Shown in pieces: positions 3,595 to 19,514 of a DNA stretch of 32,000 nt; within the stretch, counting starts at the first letter, position 1, and each line of letters begins with the position of its first letter. This DNA is from Candidatus Harpocratesius repetitus (GTDB lineage: Archaea; Asgardarchaeota; Lokiarchaeia; Sigyniarchaeales; Promethearchaeaceae). Where the stretch lies: assembly GCA_021498095.1 (NCBI GenBank), contig JAIZWK010000001.1, forward strand, positions 1,920,001 through 1,952,000, read 5' to 3'. The notes under the pieces were generated by a model. The model searched no databases and was not told where the DNA came from. It saw nothing but the letters and a program-made list of their open reading frames with translations. Both the position numbers and the translations under genes were made by a program.

Positions 3595-5130
3595 TTGAGT
3601 AATAGAGGGAAGCAGCAAAAACAGTTATATGTATGTACTTACTGTAAACAAGGGTTTTTCTATTCTGAAGTTGAAGGAAAGAGTAAGATCTGTCGAAATT
3701 GCTTGCAAAACACTCTCAAACTTCAAAAACGGCGTACTATTTTAGTCTGTCCGACATGTCATCGCTATTATGATAGTTCAGATATTATCAATCTAGATAT
3801 TCCACGTGAAAAACGCCCTGTTTTTGAACTTGGAAAATTATTGTGTAGTAAGGATAAAACACCACTCTTAATTCGCGAGTTAAAGGAAGATATTCAACAA
3901 TTGAATCAACAATTATATGGCAAGTTTAAGCATGAAAAAGAATCTGAGATTTCAGCTGAAAGACAATTTCTTGAAAAATTGAAACAATTACGATCTGAAG
4001 AAGATGTTGAAAGAGATAAAGAATCGGTTAAACCTGTTGCTCCTATAGAAGAAGGTGTACCAGCACCATCTGAATATTTTTCCCGAAAATCAACTTGGCC
4101 AAGCGGTGAAAAACTGAATACTCCTCATGCAGATGAATTTTGGAAGTACTATTTTATTGATCGACAAATTTATGATCCTTCAAATTATCTTGGTGATGAG
4201 AAAAAAGTCCTAAAAATTAAGGGTTTACTGGATGAAATTAACCTTTATTTATTCAATCCAGATAAATTGAATCCTGGGCTTCCTGTTGTTGATCATCTTG
4301 AAAATGGAAAGATCTTTTATGTTGGAGATACTCATGGATCGATATTTGATCTTGATCAATGCATCAAATTTTTCGTAAGTGAAATCGAACAGTCTTTAAA
4401 GGAAGGTTATCATGTTTTAATTGTTTTTCTGGGAGATTATGTAGATCGCCATGAAATGGATATTCATAATTTGTTATATCTCTTTAGTTTTGCCCTCCAA
4501 TTTCCTCAAAATGTCCGATTATTACGTGGAAATCATGAAGAAGTTACAATTAACATGCAATATGGGTTTTGGAGCAACATTAATCGTTATCTTCCCAATT
4601 CTTATTTGTTCAATGATTTTGAATATACTTTTATCAATCTACCGTTAATTCATGTTGTTAGAACTCCAGAAAAAGCAGTAATGGCTTTACATGGTGGAAT
4701 TCCTTTTTATCCAAAAGAATATGAGATAATTCCTAAAATACCACGGATTGTCGATGGAACTGTCTTATTAAAACCTTCATTTTCAACGGTCGAAGAAATG
4801 GATGTTCTTTCTAAGCAAATTCTCTGGGGTGATCCTGAAGAAGAACTGCCGCCTAATGTTTACTATCTTCCCAGTCGACGTGGTGTGGGATATAGTTTTG
4901 GAAAAGAGATTTTTATGAAATTTCTCGATATTAATAATATTGATAGAGTAGTACGTTCTCATGAAGTCTTTATTGATGGACATAAAGAATACTTTGACGA
5001 TAAAATGTTCAGTATATTTTCCAGCTCGAGTTATGGAAAGCGTGATATTGATGCAAAAATCTTGGAAATTGATCTAAGAAGACCATGGGTACAGAATTGG
5101 AAATTATATACTATTTTAACAGATTTATAA
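3595..5130 (+). CDS. PPP-family Ser/Thr protein phosphatase with N-terminal tandem Zn-ribbon and coiled-coil region
   Basis: GDTHG, GDYVDR, LRGNHE, HGG, LWGDP, RRG..F, RSHE, FSSSSY; N-terminal CxxC x3 plus CxxD; TTG start with GAGG upstream. Confidence 0.92.
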   Translation: MSNRGKQQKQLYVCTYCKQGFFYSEVEGKSKICRNCLQNTLKLQKRRTILVCPTCHRYYDSSDIINLDIPREKRPVFELGKLLCSKDKTPLLIRELKEDIQQLNQQLYGKFKHEKESEISAERQFLEKLKQLRSEEDVERDKESVKPVAPIEEGVPAPSEYFSRKSTWPSGEKLNTPHADEFWKYYFIDRQIYDPSNYLGDEKKVLKIKGLLDEINLYLFNPDKLNPGLPVVDHLENGKIFYVGDTHGSIFDLDQCIKFFVSEIEQSLKEGYHVLIVFLGDYVDRHEMDIHNLLYLFSFALQFPQNVRLLRGNHEEVTINMQYGFWSNINRYLPNSYLFNDFEYTFINLPLIHVVRTPEKAVMALHGGIPFYPKEYEIIPKIPRIVDGTVLLKPSFSTVEEMDVLSKQILWGDPEEELPPNVYYLPSRRGVGYSFGKEIFMKFLDINNIDRVVRSHEVFIDGHKEYFDDKMFSIFSSSSYGKRDIDAKILEIDLRRPWVQNWKLYTILTDL

Positions 5131-8199: not shown

Positions 8200-9036
8200 T
8201 TAGATGAATAATCTAAGCACGGGTTCAATGTAGTTATCTAAAAACATCATAATTACAAACCCTGCAATAATTCCAAAGGTAACTTGGCGGGAATGTTTTT
8301 TTCCATACATTTCAGGAATTATTTCATCTGTAACTACAAAAATCATTGCTCCAGCGGCAAAGGCCATTCCAAAACCCAAAAAAAACTTCGCAATATTAAC
8401 AATTGCAGCTCCAATAAATGCTCCGATTGGTTCAACTAATCCTGTACATGTTGCAATCCAAAATGCTTTTCGACGGGAATACCCTTCACGCAATAAAGGC
8501 ATTGCCACCCCTGTGCCTTCTGGAATATTTTGTAAACCAATTGCAATTGCTACAATTAATCCTGAAGTAATTTGTTCTGAATCACCTGTTCCAAAGCTCA
8601 CGCCTACTGATAATCCTTCAGGAAAATTATGAATAGTAATCGCAATTATAAATAACCAAGTAGCAGCTAACCTTTTTGAAATCTTTCCTTCATGACCTTG
8701 AACAAAATGCTTATGGGGTGCCCAACGGTCAATAAGATCGATAAATAGCGCACCTACTACAATACCTATTACTACAATCATTACAACCCATAAATTTTGT
8801 AAACTGGGTGACAAAGATGCTGGTGCTCCTCCATCTTCTGCAGAAAGAGACAAAGCAGGAACTAATAAGCTAAAAGCGGATGCAGCTAGCATAACTCCTG
8901 CTGCAAAACCTAAAAGTATATCTAAAGTCTTTTCTGATATCTCTTTCTTAGAAAACACTGGGATTGCACCAAAACTCGTTGCAAGACCTGCACCAAGTGA
9001 AGCCAAACTTCCATATAGGACCACAATCCAATTCAT
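8200..9036 (-). CDS. zupT: ZIP-family (ZupT/GufA) divalent metal transporter
   Basis: GFAAGVMLAAS, His-containing loop PHKHFVQGHEG, TM4 HNFPEG, TM5 QNIPEG, GAMIFVVTDEIIPE. Confidence 0.93.
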   Translation of the reverse strand: MNWIVVLYGSLASLGAGLATSFGAIPVFSKKEISEKTLDILLGFAAGVMLAASAFSLLVPALSLSAEDGGAPASLSPSLQNLWVVMIVVIGIVVGALFIDLIDRWAPHKHFVQGHEGKISKRLAATWLFIIAITIHNFPEGLSVGVSFGTGDSEQITSGLIVAIAIGLQNIPEGTGVAMPLLREGYSRRKAFWIATCTGLVEPIGAFIGAAIVNIAKFFLGFGMAFAAGAMIFVVTDEIIPEMYGKKHSRQVTFGIIAGFVIMMFLDNYIEPVLRLFI

Positions 9037-9168: not shown

Positions 9169-12100
9169 ATGAGTGAGTGTAATCAATGCGGTGCTACTAT
9201 TGAAGACGAAAACGCTCGATTTTGTCGTGCTTGTGGTGCAGAAATTCGCCCAGCCGAAGTAATTTTCGCCTCAACTTTGGATGAAGATGCATCTACCATT
9301 CAAAAAATGGTTCATAATTTAAAAAATACATATTATGAAATTTACTATAAAATCAACACCTTATTCTATGAAAAAACATCAAATCTATTTCATAAAAGGA
9401 TGTATTTGGAAAATAATCTTAAAATTCTTGAAAAAGCAGATTTAGATGATCGTTCTGAAAGATTGGATGAAATTAATCTTGGTCTTAAATCTGTTGCTCA
9501 AAATATAAGAGCAGAAACTGAAAATTTGCAGACTAATTTTTCCAATGCATCAAGGTTATATGATGAAGGAGAATTTATTCCAGCAAAAATCGCATTTCAT
9601 GACCTTCATAATACAACACGGAAATTAGGATTTTACTCTTGGTTGAATGAAATCATAAGAAATCAACATCAGATACAAGAAAATATTAAATGTTTGCATG
9701 CACTTGAGCGAGTTTTAATTCCAGAAGAAAGATCTGATATTACTCCTGAAGAACTCAAATCTCAACTAAGTTATTTATATTACAAAACTCTACAAATAGA
9801 GAATTTCATCAAAAATCGAAATGAATCGGTTAAAAATCCTTTAAAAATTCATAAAACTGTTTTAGATCGATTAGAAAGTCAAAAAACTCAACTAATTAGT
9901 CAAATTGAGAGTGATTTTAAAAAACTCCCTGAATTTAATTTTGGAAATAAAATAAACTATTTCTTCAAAACCACCATCCAAAATATAAAGATCACTTTAC
10001 ACTTGATTAAATTTGATAGATTACTAAAAATCGGACAAGATTATAGTAATCTTCCTAGAGCATTAAAAAGCTTGCAGGATGCTCAAAAATTATCAGAAAA
10101 TCCTGATATTTTGATTTATTCTGATAAAAAATTGGAAATGGAGTTAATAATCAAGCAAATTATGGATATGATTGCTGATTTCACAAATGAAAAAGATCAA
10201 GCTGTAAATCAAGCTTTAGAATTGGCTTTGGATTTTGAATTCGATAAAGCTATACAAATTTTGAATGAAAAAGAGCAATATCTAACTCAATATTCAATGG
10301 AAGGATTAATAAAAGAACTTCAAATACAGCAAAATATATGTAAATTTAATAAGGAAATTAATTCCGAATTAGAGCAAATTAACTCTGTTTATGAAAATGG
10401 TGATTATTTAGAAGCTTTTCAATTAATGGAGACAACTAAAAAGAAATTAGATGAAATTGATGAAAACTTAGAAATATTAGAAAATATACAAACAAAAATT
10501 AAAGATTATGAAAACAAAATATTGAAAAGCCGAAATGAGGGAGAATCCTTATTAAATCAAGAATTGGATGAAATTTGGAAATCTCTTGCTGAAGATCTTG
10601 ATTTTGAGAAAGCGCGTAATGCAATAAATGATCAACTTTCGATAGTTAATAAACAAAAATATCACTCTACTCAAAAAAGAATTGAAGATTTACTAGAAAA
10701 TTTGGAATTAAATTACGAAGCATATAAAGATTATAATGAAATTGTTAACCTTCATCAACAAAAACAATTGAAGATCGCTCAAGAAAAATTAAGCAATTTA
10801 AAGAAAAAGATCGAAAAGAATGCAAATAATTACATAAATGAGCTTCAACAACTTATTTCATCATTAGAAAAGGAATTAAATATTTTAACTGAAGAAGAAG
10901 CTAAAACAATTCAACAAGATATTAATAAAGCCCAAAGTTTACTTGTAAATCAACTAGAATTTTTCCAAGCAACAGAAATTCTATCTAATTGCAAAAATAG
11001 AGCTATAAATGCAGGATTAGAAAAATTTATTAAAATAATTGATGATTTGGCTCAAAGAATTGTCGACAATCAACGAATTCAAACAGAGCAAGTTAGTTAT
11101 GAATCGAAGATTCAAGAAGGATTTCTACAACAAGCCAAAGATGGATTAACTTCCCTTTTACAAACTGTAACTCATAATCAAGAGAAATATGAACCTCTTC
11201 TAATAAAGCAACTACAAAAAGTAATCGAGAAATTAGATAATAAAATTAAAGAAAAAGAGCATGAAATTGAAACAAAGATTGATGCATTCCATGATAAAAT
11301 GGATGAATCTTTGGATTTTGCTCCTGCTGAATTATTACTTAACGAGATTGATCAACAAATTCAAACATCTGGATTGGAGAAATTTAATAAAGTTCTATCA
11401 GAATTACGCCAAAAGGTAGAACATAATCGGTCGAAATTGATGGAATATGAAGAATTACAAAAAGTATTTGAAGAGGGAGATATTCATCAAGCCGAGCGTC
11501 AAGCCAAAAACCTTTTGAATTCAATTGAAAAAGAATTAAAGAAATCCCCACGATTTTATAGCGTTGCACTCAAAGATGCAGTATCCTTATTATATTCTGA
11601 AATTCAAACTGCATTGAAGGATGGAAAGGAAAAACTTACAACAGATTTTCAAGAAATTCAAAAACGAGTACATACTGCATTAGATTTTACTGAAATTCTA
11701 CAGTTATTAAAGAATTATCAAATTCGAGCTCAAAGATTAGGAGAAGATGTATTAAAAACTCAAATTGTTGTGTTAGAAAATCAAGTACTACAAAACTCAG
11801 AAATCATCGAAAAACACAATTTACTTGCCCAGAAATATTCAAAAATGGAAGATTTTATTGTTACACTTAGAGAAATAAAAAACCTCGTTAATCAAGTTAA
11901 AGATAATATTGCTATTTTTGATCAAATTAAAATTGTGGTTCAGTCATTACAAAATCGAGTTGAAAGTGATAACGAAAAACGTGAAGAACAAATTAGGAAA
12001 TCTTTACAAAATATTGTTGAAACTGAATTGAATGCCTTAGATTTTACTAAAGCTGCAGAATCTTTAATGAAATTAAAGGAAAGTGCACAAAGTTTAGCAA

Positions 12101-12972
12101 TTAATCAATTTAATGCTGAAATTAATCAATATTTGCTAATGTGTCAATCCCATAAGAATTTCAAAATTAGAATTGATAATGCTTTAGTAAAAGAGAAGGC
12201 TGGCCAGATTATTGAAGCTCGAGCTGTACTCGAAGATATTAAAAGTGATTTAGATCACCACGATAGTCCAGTTTTAGATGCATTAAATCATTATTTGGAT
12301 AAAAACTATGAGCGGATAAGTAATTTAATTTCAAGTGAAATTGAAAAAATAACTAAAGATGTAAAAGATCGACTGTTTAAATTAATTGAAGGTAAACAAG
12401 GAGAAGTTGCATATTTTGTTTTAGAAGAACATCTTGAACGCGCGCGCTATTTACAAGCATCTGATTTAGTAAAAGAAATAAATGATTTAATGAAACTTTG
12501 CACTTTACAATTCGATCCTACAGATAAAAAATACCGTAAGAAAAAGAAAAAGCGCCAAAAAATAGATATTGAATCACAAATTGAACAAGCTTTAGAAAAA
12601 ACAACGATGATCGCTACTTCAGAACAAGCGCAAGTAGTTGAATCGAAAAAAGCAGGTATTCAAACCATATTGGTTAAATATGATTTTGATGCTCAAGAAA
12701 AGACTCCACATTTTAACACGACTAAAGAATTGCGTGAATACAAACGAAAACAGCGAATATTAAAACAAGCAAGAGTTATTAAACCCCCTAAGGTAACAGA
12801 AAACTTGAATAATCATGTAAGATCTTCTGTAACTCGTGCCAGATTGCAAGCTTTTGATCGTCAAGCAAATAGACCTTTAAAGCGCGCTGAGAATAAAAAA
12901 TGTTTATCTTGTGGATATATTCAAAAACAGACTCATAACGTTTTCTGTGAATTTTGTGGTAATCCTTTATAA
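9169..12972 (+). CDS. Large alpha-helical repeat protein with Zn ribbons at both termini
   Basis: N-terminal CNQCG..FCRACG, C-terminal CLSCG..FCEFCG; central E/K/L/Q/N-rich helical repeats; basic patch KKYRKKKKKRQK; no NTPase motif. Confidence 0.85.
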   Translation: MSECNQCGATIEDENARFCRACGAEIRPAEVIFASTLDEDASTIQKMVHNLKNTYYEIYYKINTLFYEKTSNLFHKRMYLENNLKILEKADLDDRSERLDEINLGLKSVAQNIRAETENLQTNFSNASRLYDEGEFIPAKIAFHDLHNTTRKLGFYSWLNEIIRNQHQIQENIKCLHALERVLIPEERSDITPEELKSQLSYLYYKTLQIENFIKNRNESVKNPLKIHKTVLDRLESQKTQLISQIESDFKKLPEFNFGNKINYFFKTTIQNIKITLHLIKFDRLLKIGQDYSNLPRALKSLQDAQKLSENPDILIYSDKKLEMELIIKQIMDMIADFTNEKDQAVNQALELALDFEFDKAIQILNEKEQYLTQYSMEGLIKELQIQQNICKFNKEINSELEQINSVYENGDYLEAFQLMETTKKKLDEIDENLEILENIQTKIKDYENKILKSRNEGESLLNQELDEIWKSLAEDLDFEKARNAINDQLSIVNKQKYHSTQKRIEDLLENLELNYEAYKDYNEIVNLHQQKQLKIAQEKLSNLKKKIEKNANNYINELQQLISSLEKELNILTEEEAKTIQQDINKAQSLLVNQLEFFQATEILSNCKNRAINAGLEKFIKIIDDLAQRIVDNQRIQTEQVSYESKIQEGFLQQAKDGLTSLLQTVTHNQEKYEPLLIKQLQKVIEKLDNKIKEKEHEIETKIDAFHDKMDESLDFAPAELLLNEIDQQIQTSGLEKFNKVLSELRQKVEHNRSKLMEYEELQKVFEEGDIHQAERQAKNLLNSIEKELKKSPRFYSVALKDAVSLLYSEIQTALKDGKEKLTTDFQEIQKRVHTALDFTEILQLLKNYQIRAQRLGEDVLKTQIVVLENQVLQNSEIIEKHNLLAQKYSKMEDFIVTLREIKNLVNQVKDNIAIFDQIKIVVQSLQNRVESDNEKREEQIRKSLQNIVETELNALDFTKAAESLMKLKESAQSLAINQFNAEINQYLLMCQSHKNFKIRIDNALVKEKAGQIIEARAVLEDIKSDLDHHDSPVLDALNHYLDKNYERISNLISSEIEKITKDVKDRLFKLIEGKQGEVAYFVLEEHLERARYLQASDLVKEINDLMKLCTLQFDPTDKKYRKKKKKRQKIDIESQIEQALEKTTMIATSEQAQVVESKKAGIQTILVKYDFDAQEKTPHFNTTKELREYKRKQRILKQARVIKPPKVTENLNNHVRSSVTRARLQAFDRQANRPLKRAENKKCLSCGYIQKQTHNVFCEFCGNPL
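10228..12393 (+). repeat. Six tandem protein repeats of 119-123 aa
   Basis: L[DE]F anchors at nt 10228, 10597, 10954, 11311, 11680, 12037 (spacings 369, 357, 357, 369, 357 nt); a degenerate seventh unit starts at about 12394. Confidence 0.8.
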
Positions 12973-13026: not shown

Positions 13027-14912
13027 CCTTCTTTAACAGAATTTTGCTTTCAGACATGTCATTAATCCAGATCCCCACGATTGGGTAAGAAATTCTCCGG
13101 CTGATAGGGTTTGAGTAATTTTTGCTAGTATTTTTCTATTCACATTTTTATGCCAGATTTTTGCTTTCCGGATTGTTTGCGGCTTGTATCTTGAAGATTT
13201 CAGAGATTTTATCAGTCTGTAATAATGCCATGAATTGCAAAGTAGAGAGGCGATGATAAAGCGAATATGACGGGCTTGGACACTCCGTTTTTTACATGGG
13301 ATCCAAAATTTGTCCTTAATGCTTTGAAAGGCACTTTCTATGCCCCATCGCTGGTGGTAGCCTGTAGCAACTTGCATAACTTCATCTTTAGCTGAATCTA
13401 TCGTTTCATCTAAGCGACAATTGACACAAAAAAACATCAGACGCTTACATAAATTTTGTTTCTTCTTTCTCAGGTTTTTTAGTTGAGCATAAAGCCCTCT
13501 ACATGTTTCATAGTGGGACCTTTCTTCATCAATCTTGAATCCTTTCCGATGTTTGCCTTTATAATTTAATTTTTTTGCGTTGTCCTTTGAATAATACTTC
13601 AATCGAAATTTAATATAGTGTCTCTCTGCGAGCTCTAGTTCCGATTCCAGTTTAAGAAGGTTTTGTTCTATTTTTTGTGCCTTTTTACGTGCCCACGACA
13701 AGCTTTGCTTCCGTTTACGGTTTGAATAGGCATCAAATGTCGCTATTGAGTAGAATGGTACCAAATGTCGAGTTCCTTTTGAATTAGACGCGAAATAGTG
13801 AAGCGTTGTCTTGATCAAGCCTTTATCATAATGTCCAAGTTCAATTTTGTCAATTTCAATATCTTTTCTTGAAGAATCCAGCAAAAATTCCCATTTTTTT
13901 GAAATGCCATCACGCATTTTTTTGGGGATACAAAAGCGTGGATTATGTGTAGGGTCTTTTGAGGGTGAAAATTTTCCTAAAGTGGCCCATGCAAACCCAA
14001 TCCCTTGATAATACTCTCGATCTCCATAAATTGCCTTCACATTGATATTTTGAGATTCAGCTTTTATTACTTCTTTTGCTATCAGTGAAAGCCAGTCAGG
14101 AGGGGCTTTTCGTTTATAGTGGCTTCCTGTTGCATATTTTGGTTGAGTTTGAATAATAAATTGGCTAGTAGTGTCGTATATGCCAACTTCAGAAAAGGCT
14201 TTACCATACATTTCCTTTTGTCCAATATATCCAACAGGTTGACAATGATTGGGCTTGATTCCGGTATATTCCTTAACTGTAGGATCGATTGCAGTAGAGA
14301 TGGTTTGGTTTTGCAGTGCTTTTTTCTTTAAATTTCTCCGCATAAATGTCTGTTGCTCTTGCAATATGCGATCTGCTTTCACAGGTCTAATTGTGTCAAA
14401 AGTTTCGTTTTGCGTTTTATACGTAGTTCTAAAGAGAGATTTGCCTCTATTCTTTCTATTATTCATTAAAAATGCTTTCATCATTCCGATAGGGTCTGTT
14501 TGTTCGCTTATCCATTGAATAAGCGAGTATGTATATTGTCCTATCTCACTTAGCAAATGTTGGGCTTGTTTGAAACTTGTATGGCATATAATTTGGGTCA
14601 AAGTTGACAAAACAAGATTGTTTGACTGAGTGGGTGTTATTTTGGGTTGCTTTTCCTTGACACGCTCAGCATTGAATAATGTGGTCAGAATACCGAAAGC
14701 TTTATTGGTTGGCAATACTTGGTTTGACATTGGATGGTGTGCCCTCGGGCAGTAATTTGGAATAGTTCGGCGACTTAACCAAATTCGCCATCCCTTTTGA
14801 ATCTATCGCCATATTTCTTGTTGTTTTGTAGATTCGATTTCCATGTCACGCAAGTTATTTTGATTCTAAGATTTTTCTCTCATCCTTCTTTGAAAGAATT
14901 CCGTTTTGCTTT
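13027..14912 (-). mobile_element. Putative insertion sequence, boundaries uncertain
   Basis: Intact transposase; segment visibly GC-richer than its flanks; imperfect direct repeat at 13027-13050 and 14884-14912; no convincing terminal inverted repeats or target duplication found. Confidence 0.5.
13033..14730 (-). CDS. DDE transposase, IS4 superfamily-like (ISH3/IS1634-like)
   Basis: AIDPT (D149), YGDREY (D237), YHQRWGIESAFQSIK (E465; Y-x2-R-W-x-I-E-x2-F-x2-x-K signature), followed by the LLCNSW helix. Confidence 0.85.
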   Translation of the reverse strand: MSNQVLPTNKAFGILTTLFNAERVKEKQPKITPTQSNNLVLSTLTQIICHTSFKQAQHLLSEIGQYTYSLIQWISEQTDPIGMMKAFLMNNRKNRGKSLFRTTYKTQNETFDTIRPVKADRILQEQQTFMRRNLKKKALQNQTISTAIDPTVKEYTGIKPNHCQPVGYIGQKEMYGKAFSEVGIYDTTSQFIIQTQPKYATGSHYKRKAPPDWLSLIAKEVIKAESQNINVKAIYGDREYYQGIGFAWATLGKFSPSKDPTHNPRFCIPKKMRDGISKKWEFLLDSSRKDIEIDKIELGHYDKGLIKTTLHYFASNSKGTRHLVPFYSIATFDAYSNRKRKQSLSWARKKAQKIEQNLLKLESELELAERHYIKFRLKYYSKDNAKKLNYKGKHRKGFKIDEERSHYETCRGLYAQLKNLRKKKQNLCKRLMFFCVNCRLDETIDSAKDEVMQVATGYHQRWGIESAFQSIKDKFWIPCKKRSVQARHIRFIIASLLCNSWHYYRLIKSLKSSRYKPQTIRKAKIWHKNVNRKILAKITQTLSAGEFLTQSWGSGLMTCLKAKFC

Positions 14913-16402: not shown

Positions 16403-17590
16403 TTAGTGTGAAGTTTTAGCATGATAATACTGCATCAATTGATGTTCTAAAAATTCCTTGTTCACCCATACAATACCTTTTCGCTGCTCTTCTTCAGGTC
16501 CAATTTCTGAAATGCTTGTTTCAGGTAATAATCGCAGAAAACGAGCATTGCCAATCTTTTTTCCATCATATGTTGAAGTACTAAACAAAGAAATTAAACG
16601 ATTATCCCAAAATAGATGATAACCTTCGCTAAATTTTTGATGACCTCTAATAAATAGATTAAAACCATTTAGTTCCATAAAATCTCGAAAAGCTTGCTCG
16701 CTAAATCTTGGTCGTCCAGTTCTGGGTGTTGGAGCAACCATTTCTTTTAATTCAGGATCTGGATCTGACCAAAGAATTGTTTGGGAATAAACATCCATAT
16801 CAAAATGTTCAAGTTGATAACAATTTAGATTAGATTCTATCTCATCTATTCGAATTGGGGCATAATTTGAGACATCAAATGGTATTCCTCCATGAACTAC
16901 TAGTCCCTGTTTATTCCCACTTCGAAATATTAATCCTAAAGGTAATTTGCTGAAAAAATCTGTAATAAGCTTCCATATCATTTCAAAACGCTCACGGGAT
17001 TGTGCTTTTTCAAATAGATGCTGCGAAAAACCATATCTGGAGCAAACTGATGAATCTTCGTGATTTCCACGTAAAATAAATACATTATCTGGAAAAAGGA
17101 TCCAAAATGAGAGAATAAAGGCTAAATTTTGTAAATCATAAGGATTTCGATCCACAATATCTCCAATCCAAATTACTTTGACTTTTGGATTTACTTGAAA
17201 TACCTTTATGAAGTAATCAATCATTAAATACGTATCATCAAATGAACCATGTGTATCTCCAACAAAATAATACGTATAATCTGGTGTTTGCATGTCTCGA
17301 ATAAATTTATGATATTTCTCAGTTGTATATTTATGTTCTAAGAGTTTTTCGGCCATTAGAAATAGATTCTCATAGTTTTCTAACAAATCAACGGGTTCTG
17401 ATTTGAATTTTTCTGAACCAGCAGCAAAATACCGAAAAAACCATTGCCACACATATTGAGGTGGATTCAAGTTTCCAATATAATAAAGTTGATCTCTTAA
17501 TTCATTTGGGATTTGATTTGCATTTGATTGTGTAATTTTAATCAACCTCTTGAGCGTATATTTTAAAGGGAATTCGATATGTTTTTCCAT
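16403..17590 (-). CDS. PPP-family Ser/Thr protein phosphatase
   Basis: GDTHG, GDIVDR, LRGNHE, HGG, LWSDP, RGHQ, FSTSTY; start overlaps the kinase 3' end by 53 nt. Confidence 0.92.
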   Translation of the reverse strand: MEKHIEFPLKYTLKRLIKITQSNANQIPNELRDQLYYIGNLNPPQYVWQWFFRYFAAGSEKFKSEPVDLLENYENLFLMAEKLLEHKYTTEKYHKFIRDMQTPDYTYYFVGDTHGSFDDTYLMIDYFIKVFQVNPKVKVIWIGDIVDRNPYDLQNLAFILSFWILFPDNVFILRGNHEDSSVCSRYGFSQHLFEKAQSRERFEMIWKLITDFFSKLPLGLIFRSGNKQGLVVHGGIPFDVSNYAPIRIDEIESNLNCYQLEHFDMDVYSQTILWSDPDPELKEMVAPTPRTGRPRFSEQAFRDFMELNGFNLFIRGHQKFSEGYHLFWDNRLISLFSTSTYDGKKIGNARFLRLLPETSISEIGPEEEQRKGIVWVNKEFLEHQLMQYYHAKTSH

Positions 17591-19514
17591 CCGGTGCTAC
17601 AAATGGGACTTCAATTAACATATTTCCCAAATTTGCCCGGGATAGTTGAATCGAGACATTATCTAAATTTTTTATTGCAACATTATTATAAACTTGTCGA
17701 TTTGGCATAGTTAAATTTGAAAGGTATGTTCCCATCGGTGAATAAATATCCCTAATATATGCAATATCACCGTCAATATATAATTGAAAAGAAAATTTAC
17801 CTTCATCTGTTGGTAGTAATGCGTTGTAAATATGTCCGTCCATTTCATGCGTCCGACCCACGTTTAAAATTTCCTCTCTTCCTATATTAACTATTGTTTT
17901 AGGCGGTATTTCTAAAAATCCTTGATTATAATCGCAATAAAGATAATATTTAATTCTTTTTTGAGGGGATTGGATTTTTTGAATTAATTTTCCTGCTGCG
18001 TCATAAATCCATTGTAATGCATCATAAACTTTAACCATATCTGCCATTCGATCTGCCGGCTCATATTGTGTCATATATTCTACTAGTTTATTGAATTCTT
18101 CTGGTAATTGTGGATTAAAATCGCTAGGATGAAGCACAAAATCTTCATTAGTGGCAGCAGCTCCTGCATAATGTCCTCCACTAAAAAGATAGAACATAAT
18201 ATGACCCAACATGTATATATCTGTTGTTGCAATTGGCTCAAATCCTGCCATTACTTCTGGAGGTGTGCCTCTATTTCGAATTCCTGTCGCTTCCGGCGTT
18301 GCTGATACGTAATAGGGTTTACGGGGATGATACATTTGATCCATTCCAATCTCTTTAGCCACTCCCCAATCAATAATTATTGGATAATAGTTTCCATCTT
18401 CTTGAGTTACAATCATTACATTTTGAACTGTTAAATCTCGGTGAACAATACCTTTTTGATGACAAAAATACATATGGCGAGTAATCGGCATTAAGATGTT
18501 CTTGATTAAATCTTGTAATGCAGTTAGAGTTAAATGGTCAAGATCAGGGAAATTTTGAATATACCATTTATCTAATGGAATTCCATCAATGAATTCTAAA
18601 AAGATATAGTATTCTGGATTTTGAAATTGTGTTAAATGAAGATTACCTAAGTATTTCATAGTTTTTTCAGGGGATTCACTTTGAATTTCGGTGATCTTTG
18701 ATTCTCTTTTCCAGTATTTTTCACAGAAGTTTTTACCTGATTCTGGATCATGAAATCGAGTGAAATAAAACTCTTTCAAAGCTGCAATTCGATCGGTGTT
18801 CATGTTTTTTACTTTATGAACTGCTCCCATACCTCCAGTTCCAATTTTTTCGATAATTTGGTATTTTTCACCATTTAATATTAAAATATCTCCATTTTTA
18901 ATCCCTGCATGAGTTTTTTCTACTAAAGCATTATCTGGTTTTGTAGGAGATGGAGGAAATGCCTGAATATTTTGAAAAATAGGATTTTTTTGGGCATTTA
19001 AATTAGAATTCTTTGAACTGACCTTTTGAGATGATGATTCTTCATTTCCTTCTATAATTGGGAAAGGTAAAAATGCACTTTTTTTTATTTTAGGTTTTGG
19101 TTGTGCTGCTAATGTTTTTGCCAATTCCAAAGCTTCATGTGAACTTGATGCAGCTAATTTCCTTCGTTTTGGGATTTTTGGTGGTAGTTTTGCATCAAAA
19201 CCTTTGATTGGTGAACTATTTTTAGATCTTAATGTATTACTATTACTCTTTGGTTTTACACCAATTCTAATCGCTTTTAGCTGACCCTTACAATTTGACG
19301 ATTGGCATATTAATTTTGAATTGCCATGTAGTTGAATGAAGCTATTTTTATTTTGAGTCAAACCACATTTCCGACATCGAAGAATAAATCTACCGCTTAT
19401 TTTTTCTAAGCGAAGATTATTGCATTGTTCACAAGTATGTGTTCCTTGGCTATCTAAAAGATAAATATTTTTACATTGAGGGCATTGAAAGAATTCTTTG
19501 GGAGAAATCGACAT
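17538..19514 (-). CDS. Hanks-type protein kinase with N-terminal tandem Zn-ribbon and C-terminal FHA-like domain
   Basis: GTGGMGAV, AALKE, HRDLTVQN, DWG, PPE, DIYMLG, R in subdomain XI; eight N-terminal Cys; C-terminal IGR...IRDIYSPMGT resembles FHA GR and D-x2-S-x-NGT. Confidence 0.93.
   Translation of the reverse strand: MSISPKEFFQCPQCKNIYLLDSQGTHTCEQCNNLRLEKISGRFILRCRKCGLTQNKNSFIQLHGNSKLICQSSNCKGQLKAIRIGVKPKSNSNTLRSKNSSPIKGFDAKLPPKIPKRRKLAASSSHEALELAKTLAAQPKPKIKKSAFLPFPIIEGNEESSSQKVSSKNSNLNAQKNPIFQNIQAFPPSPTKPDNALVEKTHAGIKNGDILILNGEKYQIIEKIGTGGMGAVHKVKNMNTDRIAALKEFYFTRFHDPESGKNFCEKYWKRESKITEIQSESPEKTMKYLGNLHLTQFQNPEYYIFLEFIDGIPLDKWYIQNFPDLDHLTLTALQDLIKNILMPITRHMYFCHQKGIVHRDLTVQNVMIVTQEDGNYYPIIIDWGVAKEIGMDQMYHPRKPYYVSATPEATGIRNRGTPPEVMAGFEPIATTDIYMLGHIMFYLFSGGHYAGAAATNEDFVLHPSDFNPQLPEEFNKLVEYMTQYEPADRMADMVKVYDALQWIYDAAGKLIQKIQSPQKRIKYYLYCDYNQGFLEIPPKTIVNIGREEILNVGRTHEMDGHIYNALLPTDEGKFSFQLYIDGDIAYIRDIYSPMGTYLSNLTMPNRQVYNNVAIKNLDNVSIQLSRANLGNMLIEVPFVAPDGKTYRIPFKIYAQEVD

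Follow-up and report, generated by a model that had tools for sequence, protein, structure and literature searches.

The window analysed in this study, a stretch of 32,000 nucleotides (C1:1920001-1952000), is part of the 4.36 Mb genome of Candidatus Harpocratesius repetitus, which is assembled as a single contig and has a family-level relative in Ca. Lokiarchaeum ossiferum (G137). The nearest relatives of the encoded proteins come from MAGs labelled Promethearchaeia/Promethearchaeota and from Candidatus Harpocratesius. It encodes a PPP phosphatase and a Hanks-type Ser/Thr kinase, both carrying a tandem Zn-ribbon module at their N-terminus, and a second PPP without this module, with the following features:

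3595..5130, + strand: gene of the Zn-module PPP phosphatase (P0001), an ORF of 511 aa with a TTG start
3622..3879, + strand: N-terminal tandem Zn-ribbon module of P0001, residues 10-95, supported by alignment, AF2 model and the HMM of family Y described below
3880..4308, + strand: charged linker of P0001, which leads into a conserved pre-catalytic segment; residues 96-230 have a net charge of -5
4309..4965, + strand: PPP (calcineurin-like) catalytic domain of P0001, Pfam PF00149 Metallophos, 70 bits, residues 239-457
16403..17590, - strand: gene of a module-less canonical PPP (P0015), 395 aa, Metallophos at 82.5 bits, motifs GDTHG, GDIVDRN and GNHE
17538..19514, - strand: gene of the Zn-module Ser/Thr kinase (P0002), an ORF of 658 aa
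17541..18017, - strand: C-terminal region of P0002, homologous to the FHA-bearing tails of orthologs (BLASTP to the tail of P0038, 4.7e-28)
18042..18863, - strand: Hanks-type protein kinase domain of P0002, Pfam PF00069 Pkinase, residues 218-491
18870..19259, - strand: basic K/P/S-rich linker of P0002, little conserved, residues 86-215, net charge +13
19260..19496, - strand: N-terminal tandem Zn-ribbon module of P0002, residues 7-85, supported by the same three means

In P0001, the motifs GDTHG, GDYVDRH and RGNHE are all intact and agree with the patterns GDxHG, GDxVDR[GHN] and GNHE of PPP phosphoprotein phosphatases, and orthologs of the protein are found in five other genomes (G133, G135, G136, G137 and G138). 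The catalytic domain of P0002 is assigned to the Hanks-type kinases by a Pkinase score of 75.4 bits, at a cut-off of 31.7, and by the presence of the motifs GTGGMG, HRDL and DWG. Its C-terminal region (residues 495-658) has no match in Pfam, FHA included; the tail of the orthologous kinase P0038 is recognized as FHA domain with 21.3 bits at a threshold of 20.7.

The N-termini of both enzymes display the pattern CxxC-x13/15-CxxC-x15-CxxC followed by a fourth knuckle, with the respective pairs located at C14/C17, C33/C36, C52/C55 and C84-x-x-D87 in the phosphatase and at C11/C14, C28/C31, C47/C50 and C70/C75 in the kinase, where the fourth knuckle takes the form CxxxxC. This resemblance had been noticed by eye in the original prediction, which assigned it to nt 3628-3867 (residues 12-91 of P0001) and nt 19278-19493 (residues 8-79 of P0002). 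Its coordinates are correct, every residue match that it quoted is found at the same register in a MAFFT alignment of 23 modules, and both sequences contain the four knuckles it had described, the last one as CxxD in the phosphatase. Seven Cys are invariant throughout this alignment. The eighth ligand position is occupied by Cys in the kinases (CxxxxC), in the Y proteins and in L038, a distant ortholog of the phosphatase (CQDC), and by an invariant Asp in the near phosphatase orthologs (C-x-[KR]-D), and it thus appears, in light of the fourth knuckle of L038, that this Asp resides at the position of a former Cys.

A comparable arrangement could have emerged if the two N-termini were independent generic Zn ribbons without common ancestry that have converged in their Cys spacing and hydrophobic strands, and the direct comparison of both modules is compatible with such an origin, since pairwise and single-family profile scores fail to distinguish the two from other segments with three knuckles. 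In BLASTP, the two N-termini align with an E-value of 3.3, and their Smith-Waterman score of 48 corresponds to z=3.7 when compared to free shuffles but to z=1.1 (p=0.15) against shuffles with fixed Cys positions. In HMM searches of the host genome, represented by 11,167 ORFs from all six frames with a minimum length of 60 aa, the phosphatase ranks 7th with an HMM built from kinase modules only (E 0.061) and the kinase ranks 3rd with its counterpart built from phosphatase modules only (E 0.031). A similar picture is obtained with hhalign on a decoy set of 26 host-genome segments containing three CxxC knuckles at similar spacing, where the kinase profile scores the phosphatase at 32.5 and the best decoys at 31.6, 31.5 and 30.0, and where the phosphatase profile scores the kinase at 26.3, beneath four decoys (5th among non-self segments). 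The similarity seen by eye, on which the proposal of a shared module was originally grounded, is thus at chance level, and pairwise BLASTP and single-family HMMs, which give no signal above other ribbons, were dropped as a basis for homology. Searches of the host genome with either module have revealed no additional copy. The top decoy of the hhalign test, an ORF at C1:3213681-3215963 on the - strand, carries a similar Cys pattern at its N-terminus.

The case for homology is instead carried by a third family of proteins. Profile searches with the phosphatase module against 400 genomes of the phylum and with the kinase module against 161 genomes of the class have recovered, in related genera, proteins with lengths of 500-640 aa, here termed family Y (among them L039, L044 and P0017, which is NEF87_001325 of L. 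ossiferum), whose succession of module, linker and PPP fold is that of the phosphatase. L039 is colinear with P0001 over its full length including the module (E 2e-18), and the module of L044, a dead PPP, aligns with the kinase module over 74 ungapped residues at 30% identity in BLASTP (E 5e-10), with the kinase-module HMM detecting L044 at 4.9e-12 and L039 at 2.2e-10. An HMM of five Y modules, none of them from the host genome, was run unfiltered against the same 11,167 ORFs and returned as its top two matches the kinase, with 34.0 bits (E 1.2e-8), followed by the phosphatase, with 26.8 bits (E 2.3e-6), the latter separated by a gap of 11 bits from the third-best ORF (15.1 bits, E 0.0096). 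On the decoy set, the Y profile scores the kinase at 63.5 and the phosphatase at 49.5, compared to 34.5 for the best decoy. Alignments of the profiles of the kinase (K), dead-PPP (Y) and phosphatase (P) types by hhalign yielded probabilities of 98.6% for K-Y (E 1.4e-15), 96.7% for P-Y (E 4e-10) and 96.3% for P-K (E 1.6e-9), values that are inflated for such sequences, since family Z, which also has tandem ribbons but appears to be unrelated, obtains 92.5% with P. Family Z, which consists of 547-aa proteins with similar Cys pattern, scores 9% against Y and was excluded as further module type.

Judged by these comparisons, the homology between K and Y appears firm and the one between Y and P moderate, with the Y profile finding the phosphatase at 26.8 bits and, in hhalign, with a lead of 15 units over the best decoy. 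The inflation of hhalign probabilities for Zn-ribbon profiles would again be in line with convergence. This origin is, however, difficult to reconcile with an independently built Y HMM that selects exactly P0001 and P0002 with a wide gap to the next ORF and with a K-Y similarity that is significant even in BLASTP. The fact that the K, Y and P types share their N-terminal position and seven-Cys register points in the same direction. We thus regard convergence, already disfavoured on these grounds, as very improbable, and the two modules of the window as most probably derived from a common ancestor. The shared module of the original prediction is in this way retained, with its support coming from family Y rather than from the likeness between kinase and phosphatase.

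The Y proteins comprise P0017-P0020, P0025, P0028-P0032, P0034 and P0035 and are encoded in the genomes of L. ossiferum (NEF87_001325), G133 and G138; no module-bearing Y copy was found in the genome of the window. Their genes, each encoding the module and a dead PPP, include the following loci in other Lokiarchaeia:

L039:1073-2620, - strand
L044:696-2612, + strand
L054:763-2301, - strand

In 11 of 11 members examined, all metal-binding and catalytic motifs of the PPP fold are lost, with GDxHG changed to GD[IL]xGD or GN.., GDxVDR to GNYFN, GNHE to GA[KN]D and similar sequences, and HGG to N[ST]G. By the loss of these motifs, family Y is a conserved family of catalytically dead pseudophosphatases, which is new and which, as candidate pseudoenzyme regulator, is of interest in its own right. 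Dead folds that are retained under selection alongside active enzymes are familiar from the pseudophosphatases of eukaryotes, where the known examples mostly belong to the PTP/DUSP and myotubularin families and not to PPPs, and eukaryotes also contain cases where one accessory or targeting domain is found on opposing kinases and phosphatases. The module and Y proteins are analogous to both without being related to them in sequence.

The architecture of the module is illustrated in AF2 models of its kinase (pLDDT 84.3, pTM 0.71) and phosphatase (pLDDT 89.9, pTM 0.78) versions, which are both confident and compact and contain a hairpin, strands, the third knuckle, a short helix and a terminal hairpin in the same order, a likeness that is partly by construction and not independent evidence, since one joint alignment was fed into both predictions. 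The module is assigned to the zinc-ribbon fold class, which is defined by two CxxC (or CxnC) knuckles located 10-20 residues apart on beta-hairpins; this unit is repeated here in tandem, with beta-hairpins placed at the knuckles by AF2. From this fold class and the Cys pattern we infer that the module binds Zn. Classical zinc ribbons, such as those of RPB12/RpoP, TFIIB, TFE/TFIIE-alpha, eL43 and RPB9, likewise consist of pairs of CxxC knuckles on beta-hairpins, and Foldseek superimposes half of the kinase module on RPB12 (36 residues, rmsd 1.5) and the second half of the phosphatase module on the ribbons of TFIIE-alpha. However, these ribbons are single, whereas the module is a unit of two, and for this whole unit no match was found in the PDB, the AlphaFold DB clusters and the ESM Atlas, where TM by query was at most 0.48 and E-values were at least 0.018, nor did a sequence profile search of the PDB identify a match to the whole module (insignificant, E of at least 0.016). 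The mentioned single-ribbon proteins, which are the nearest matches, all sit in nucleic-acid machines. Together with the net basic charge of all three module types (+8, +7 and +5) and of the kinase linker, this would be consistent with a module that binds nucleic acid and thereby anchors its enzymes on RNA or DNA, or on the ribosome or RNA polymerase. Since these matches are all weak (with E-values of at least 0.016 in PDB sequence and of at least 0.1 in Foldseek searches) and concern one generic ribbon only, and since the linkers of the phosphatase P0001 and of the Y proteins are acidic, we consider such tethering to be quite unlikely.

The comparison with described domains bears out the statement of the original prediction that it did not recognize a named family, as no family in Pfam, NCBIfam, the PDB or AlphaFold DB covers the whole module. 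In Pfam, all matches of the N-termini of P0001 and P0002 to Zn fingers are below cut-off, the best being DUF3797 with 16.7 compared to 25.1 bits, and NCBIfam contains no match for either N-terminus. Two families with consecutive CxxC knuckles in signalling contexts resemble the module and were rejected as its identity. One is TackOD1 (PF18551), an output domain of archaeal response regulators with 11 conserved Cys arranged in five CXXC and one HXXC motif (PMC5847659), to which the kinase scores 14.2 and the dead PPP P0017 15.2 bits at a cut-off of 32, with the module containing 7-8 Cys; the other one is DZR (PF12773), which is unreported for P0001 and P0002 at E<=1. Zn ribbons are also fused to phospho-signalling parts in the Zn-ribbon-FHA proteins found in operons with kinases, phosphatases and vWA proteins, but these ribbons are short, generic and assigned to Zn_ribbon_3/DZR by Pfam, and the module HMMs detect them only at noise level. 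The literature on Asgard PPPs and archaeal kinase/FHA systems, as far as it is searchable, does not describe the module. The module is a new domain family of known fold class and with a known use as accessory domain on signalling enzymes, and its distribution is unusual.

This distribution was defined in a wide search of 1.84 billion representative proteins with a profile of all 23 modules, which has returned only 40 matches at E<=1e-3. About 25 of them are clear carriers, with the module being N-terminal in all, and the other matches are multi-stretch generic ribbons. The carriers include the kinases P0021, P0023, P0038, P0052 and P0053, the last of which combines module and kinase with LRRs, the active PPP P0027 with additional fragments, eleven dead PPPs of the Y type, and P0037 and P0042, two proteins of 275-277 aa where the module is followed by an FHA domain alone (with 21.3 bits at a cut-off of 20.7 in P0042) and whose gene neighbourhoods contain nothing related to signalling. 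The search for recurrence that the original prediction had suggested has thus located the module on kinase-FHA, kinase-LRR, active PPP, dead PPP and FHA-only proteins. Its occurrence on phospho-signalling proteins only is the pattern expected of a dedicated signalling accessory module. The kinase type is found in 10 of the 13 other genomes of the family to which the window belongs, including 4 of 4 in genus g6, and obtains no significant score elsewhere in the class; in L. ossiferum, all three types (K, Y and P) are present.

When PPP domains are placed in a maximum-likelihood tree, active phosphatases with the module group together in a clade (96/98) that is nested among module-less paralogs of the host genome, and Y forms a separate one (100/100), whose placement is uncertain in light of its long branch. 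The position of the nested phosphatase clade apart from Y implies that the module has either joined PPP domains more than once or been lost in paralogs. Either way, it behaves as an independent unit, which is combined with phospho-signalling domains only. The host genome contains at least seven PPP-type paralogs, which is unusually many for an archaeon.

The genomic context does not favour a special pairing of the two module-bearing enzymes as writer and eraser of the same phosphorylation. The module-less phosphatase gene P0015 begins inside the kinase gene, with 53 nt shared between the start of the former and the end of the latter, and the two genes are also adjacent in G136 and L. ossiferum, and it is evidently P0015, rather than the Zn-module PPP, which is the operonic and obvious eraser partner of the kinase. 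The distance between the genes of the kinase and the Zn-module PPP amounts to 12 kb in the window, G135 and G136 and to 21 kb in L. ossiferum. We have rejected the 12-kb linkage as sign of coupling, as it belongs to a block of 30 kb, extending from a wHTH to an AhpC/Trx gene, in which synteny with G136 and L. ossiferum holds for nearly all genes. Finally, the PPP-type profile detects no module-bearing phosphatase in genus g6, where all genomes contain the kinase-type module and where the weak matches (best E 5e-4) are the kinases L046 and L047 and the Z-family protein L021. The proposed writer/eraser pairing is weakened by all three observations.

Several other genes of the window were noted. 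The gene at 9169-12972 on the + strand, which lies between those of the kinase and of the Zn-module PPP, encodes a protein of 1267 aa that carries a Zn ribbon at its N-terminus (Zn_Ribbon_1, NOB1-like, with a score below cut-off); it has kept this syntenic place in G136, where the protein is 61% identical, and in L. ossiferum, where it is 35% identical. A ZIP zinc-transporter gene (8200-9036, - strand) and a DDE-transposase-like ORF (13033-14730, - strand), for which tblastn finds no counterpart in the corresponding, otherwise syntenic blocks of either G136 or L. ossiferum, have the appearance of insertions restricted to the host genome.

The described properties are best explained by both N-termini having diverged from a single lineage-specific domain, which comprises about 80 residues and consists of two consecutive zinc ribbons, the first formed by CxxC...CxxC and the second by CxxC, a short helix and CxnC, with Asp in place of the last ligand in the near phosphatase orthologs. 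This domain would constitute a mobile accessory module of the Ser/Thr phospho-signalling toolkit of Lokiarchaeia, placed at the N-terminus and, via a long flexible tether, on a Hanks-type kinase with FHA-like tail, an active PPP, a dead PPP and an FHA-only protein. Its most likely role would be that of a Zn-stabilized basic docking domain, which places its carriers at a partner or cellular site. Such a role is suggested by the exclusive association with writers, erasers, dead erasers and readers, by long linkers of little conservation and by the basic charge of the module.

The conservation within the module places constraints on what it might bind. While 30-41 columns are nearly invariant within each family, only the seven Cys are common to K, Y and P, and the stretch following the third knuckle is invariant within a family but unrelated between them, with the sequence GLTQNK..F..LHG in kinases, EYWPK in dead PPPs and HRYYDS in PPPs. 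These family-specific surfaces argue against one common interface and suggest that the targets of the carriers are probably related but not identical. They could also be expected of homologous modules that have no targeting role and that instead regulate or stabilize their own protein by packing on or masking the catalytic domain, with their sharing being a result of domain shuffling, and the conserved segment between module and catalytic domain of the phosphatase would fit this explanation. In contrast, the linkers are long, with the one of the kinase comprising about 130 poorly conserved, basic residues, the FHA-only carriers have no enzyme to regulate and the module is joined to unrelated catalytic folds, all of which speaks against an intramolecular role and leads us to view it as rather unlikely. 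We thus lean towards a docking module with family-specific partners inside one signalling network. The original idea of a targeting domain accordingly persists in part: a homologous domain without a name, found on a kinase and a phosphatase and recurring only on phospho-signalling proteins, is retained, whereas the delivery of both enzymes to one target and their docking on each other are hypothetical, and a common interface and a special pairing of the two are disfavoured.

A more far-reaching arrangement, where a Lokiarchaeial scaffold would gather a kinase-FHA writer, a PPP eraser, a pseudo-PPP decoy or adaptor and an FHA reader at one hub via the zinc module, appears unlikely to us. If true, it would be a prokaryotic counterpart of the kinase/phosphatase scaffolding in eukaryotes and contain the first pseudo-PPP regulator. 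To our knowledge, very little is known about the source of Ser/Thr signalling specificity in these archaea, and the module, with its size of about 80 residues, offers a clonable handle on the substrates or site of the network in the cultured Ca. Lokiarchaeum ossiferum. If it were a structural ribbon only, the finding would shrink to a new lineage-specific domain family.

Tandem ribbons are also encountered in other proteins of these archaea. The host genome contains a second phospho-signalling operon of nine genes (L065:153-10806, corresponding to C1:635153-645806 on the - strand), which encode, in this order, a vWA protein, a Zn-ribbon-FHA protein, a CpXC/Zn-ribbon protein, a member of family Z, a Zn-ribbon protein of 291 aa, a kinase, a PP2C and two PPPs, and where the Z protein, with a length of 547 aa, contains a tandem ribbon with similar Cys spacing and no Pfam domain. 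Weak matches to the module profiles (E of about 3e-4 per genome) were obtained for L040-L043, L048, L049, L052 and L055 of the families f3, f4, f20 and f31, which are proteins of 500-730 aa with multiple N-terminal ribbons, a coiled coil and weak matches to bPH, Vps23_core or CdvA. They resemble Znr_CC_PH_SB, an Asgard-specific ESCRT-associated family (PMC10936438), and their third knuckle, CPKCHS..IINI, is similar to the one of the phosphatase module.
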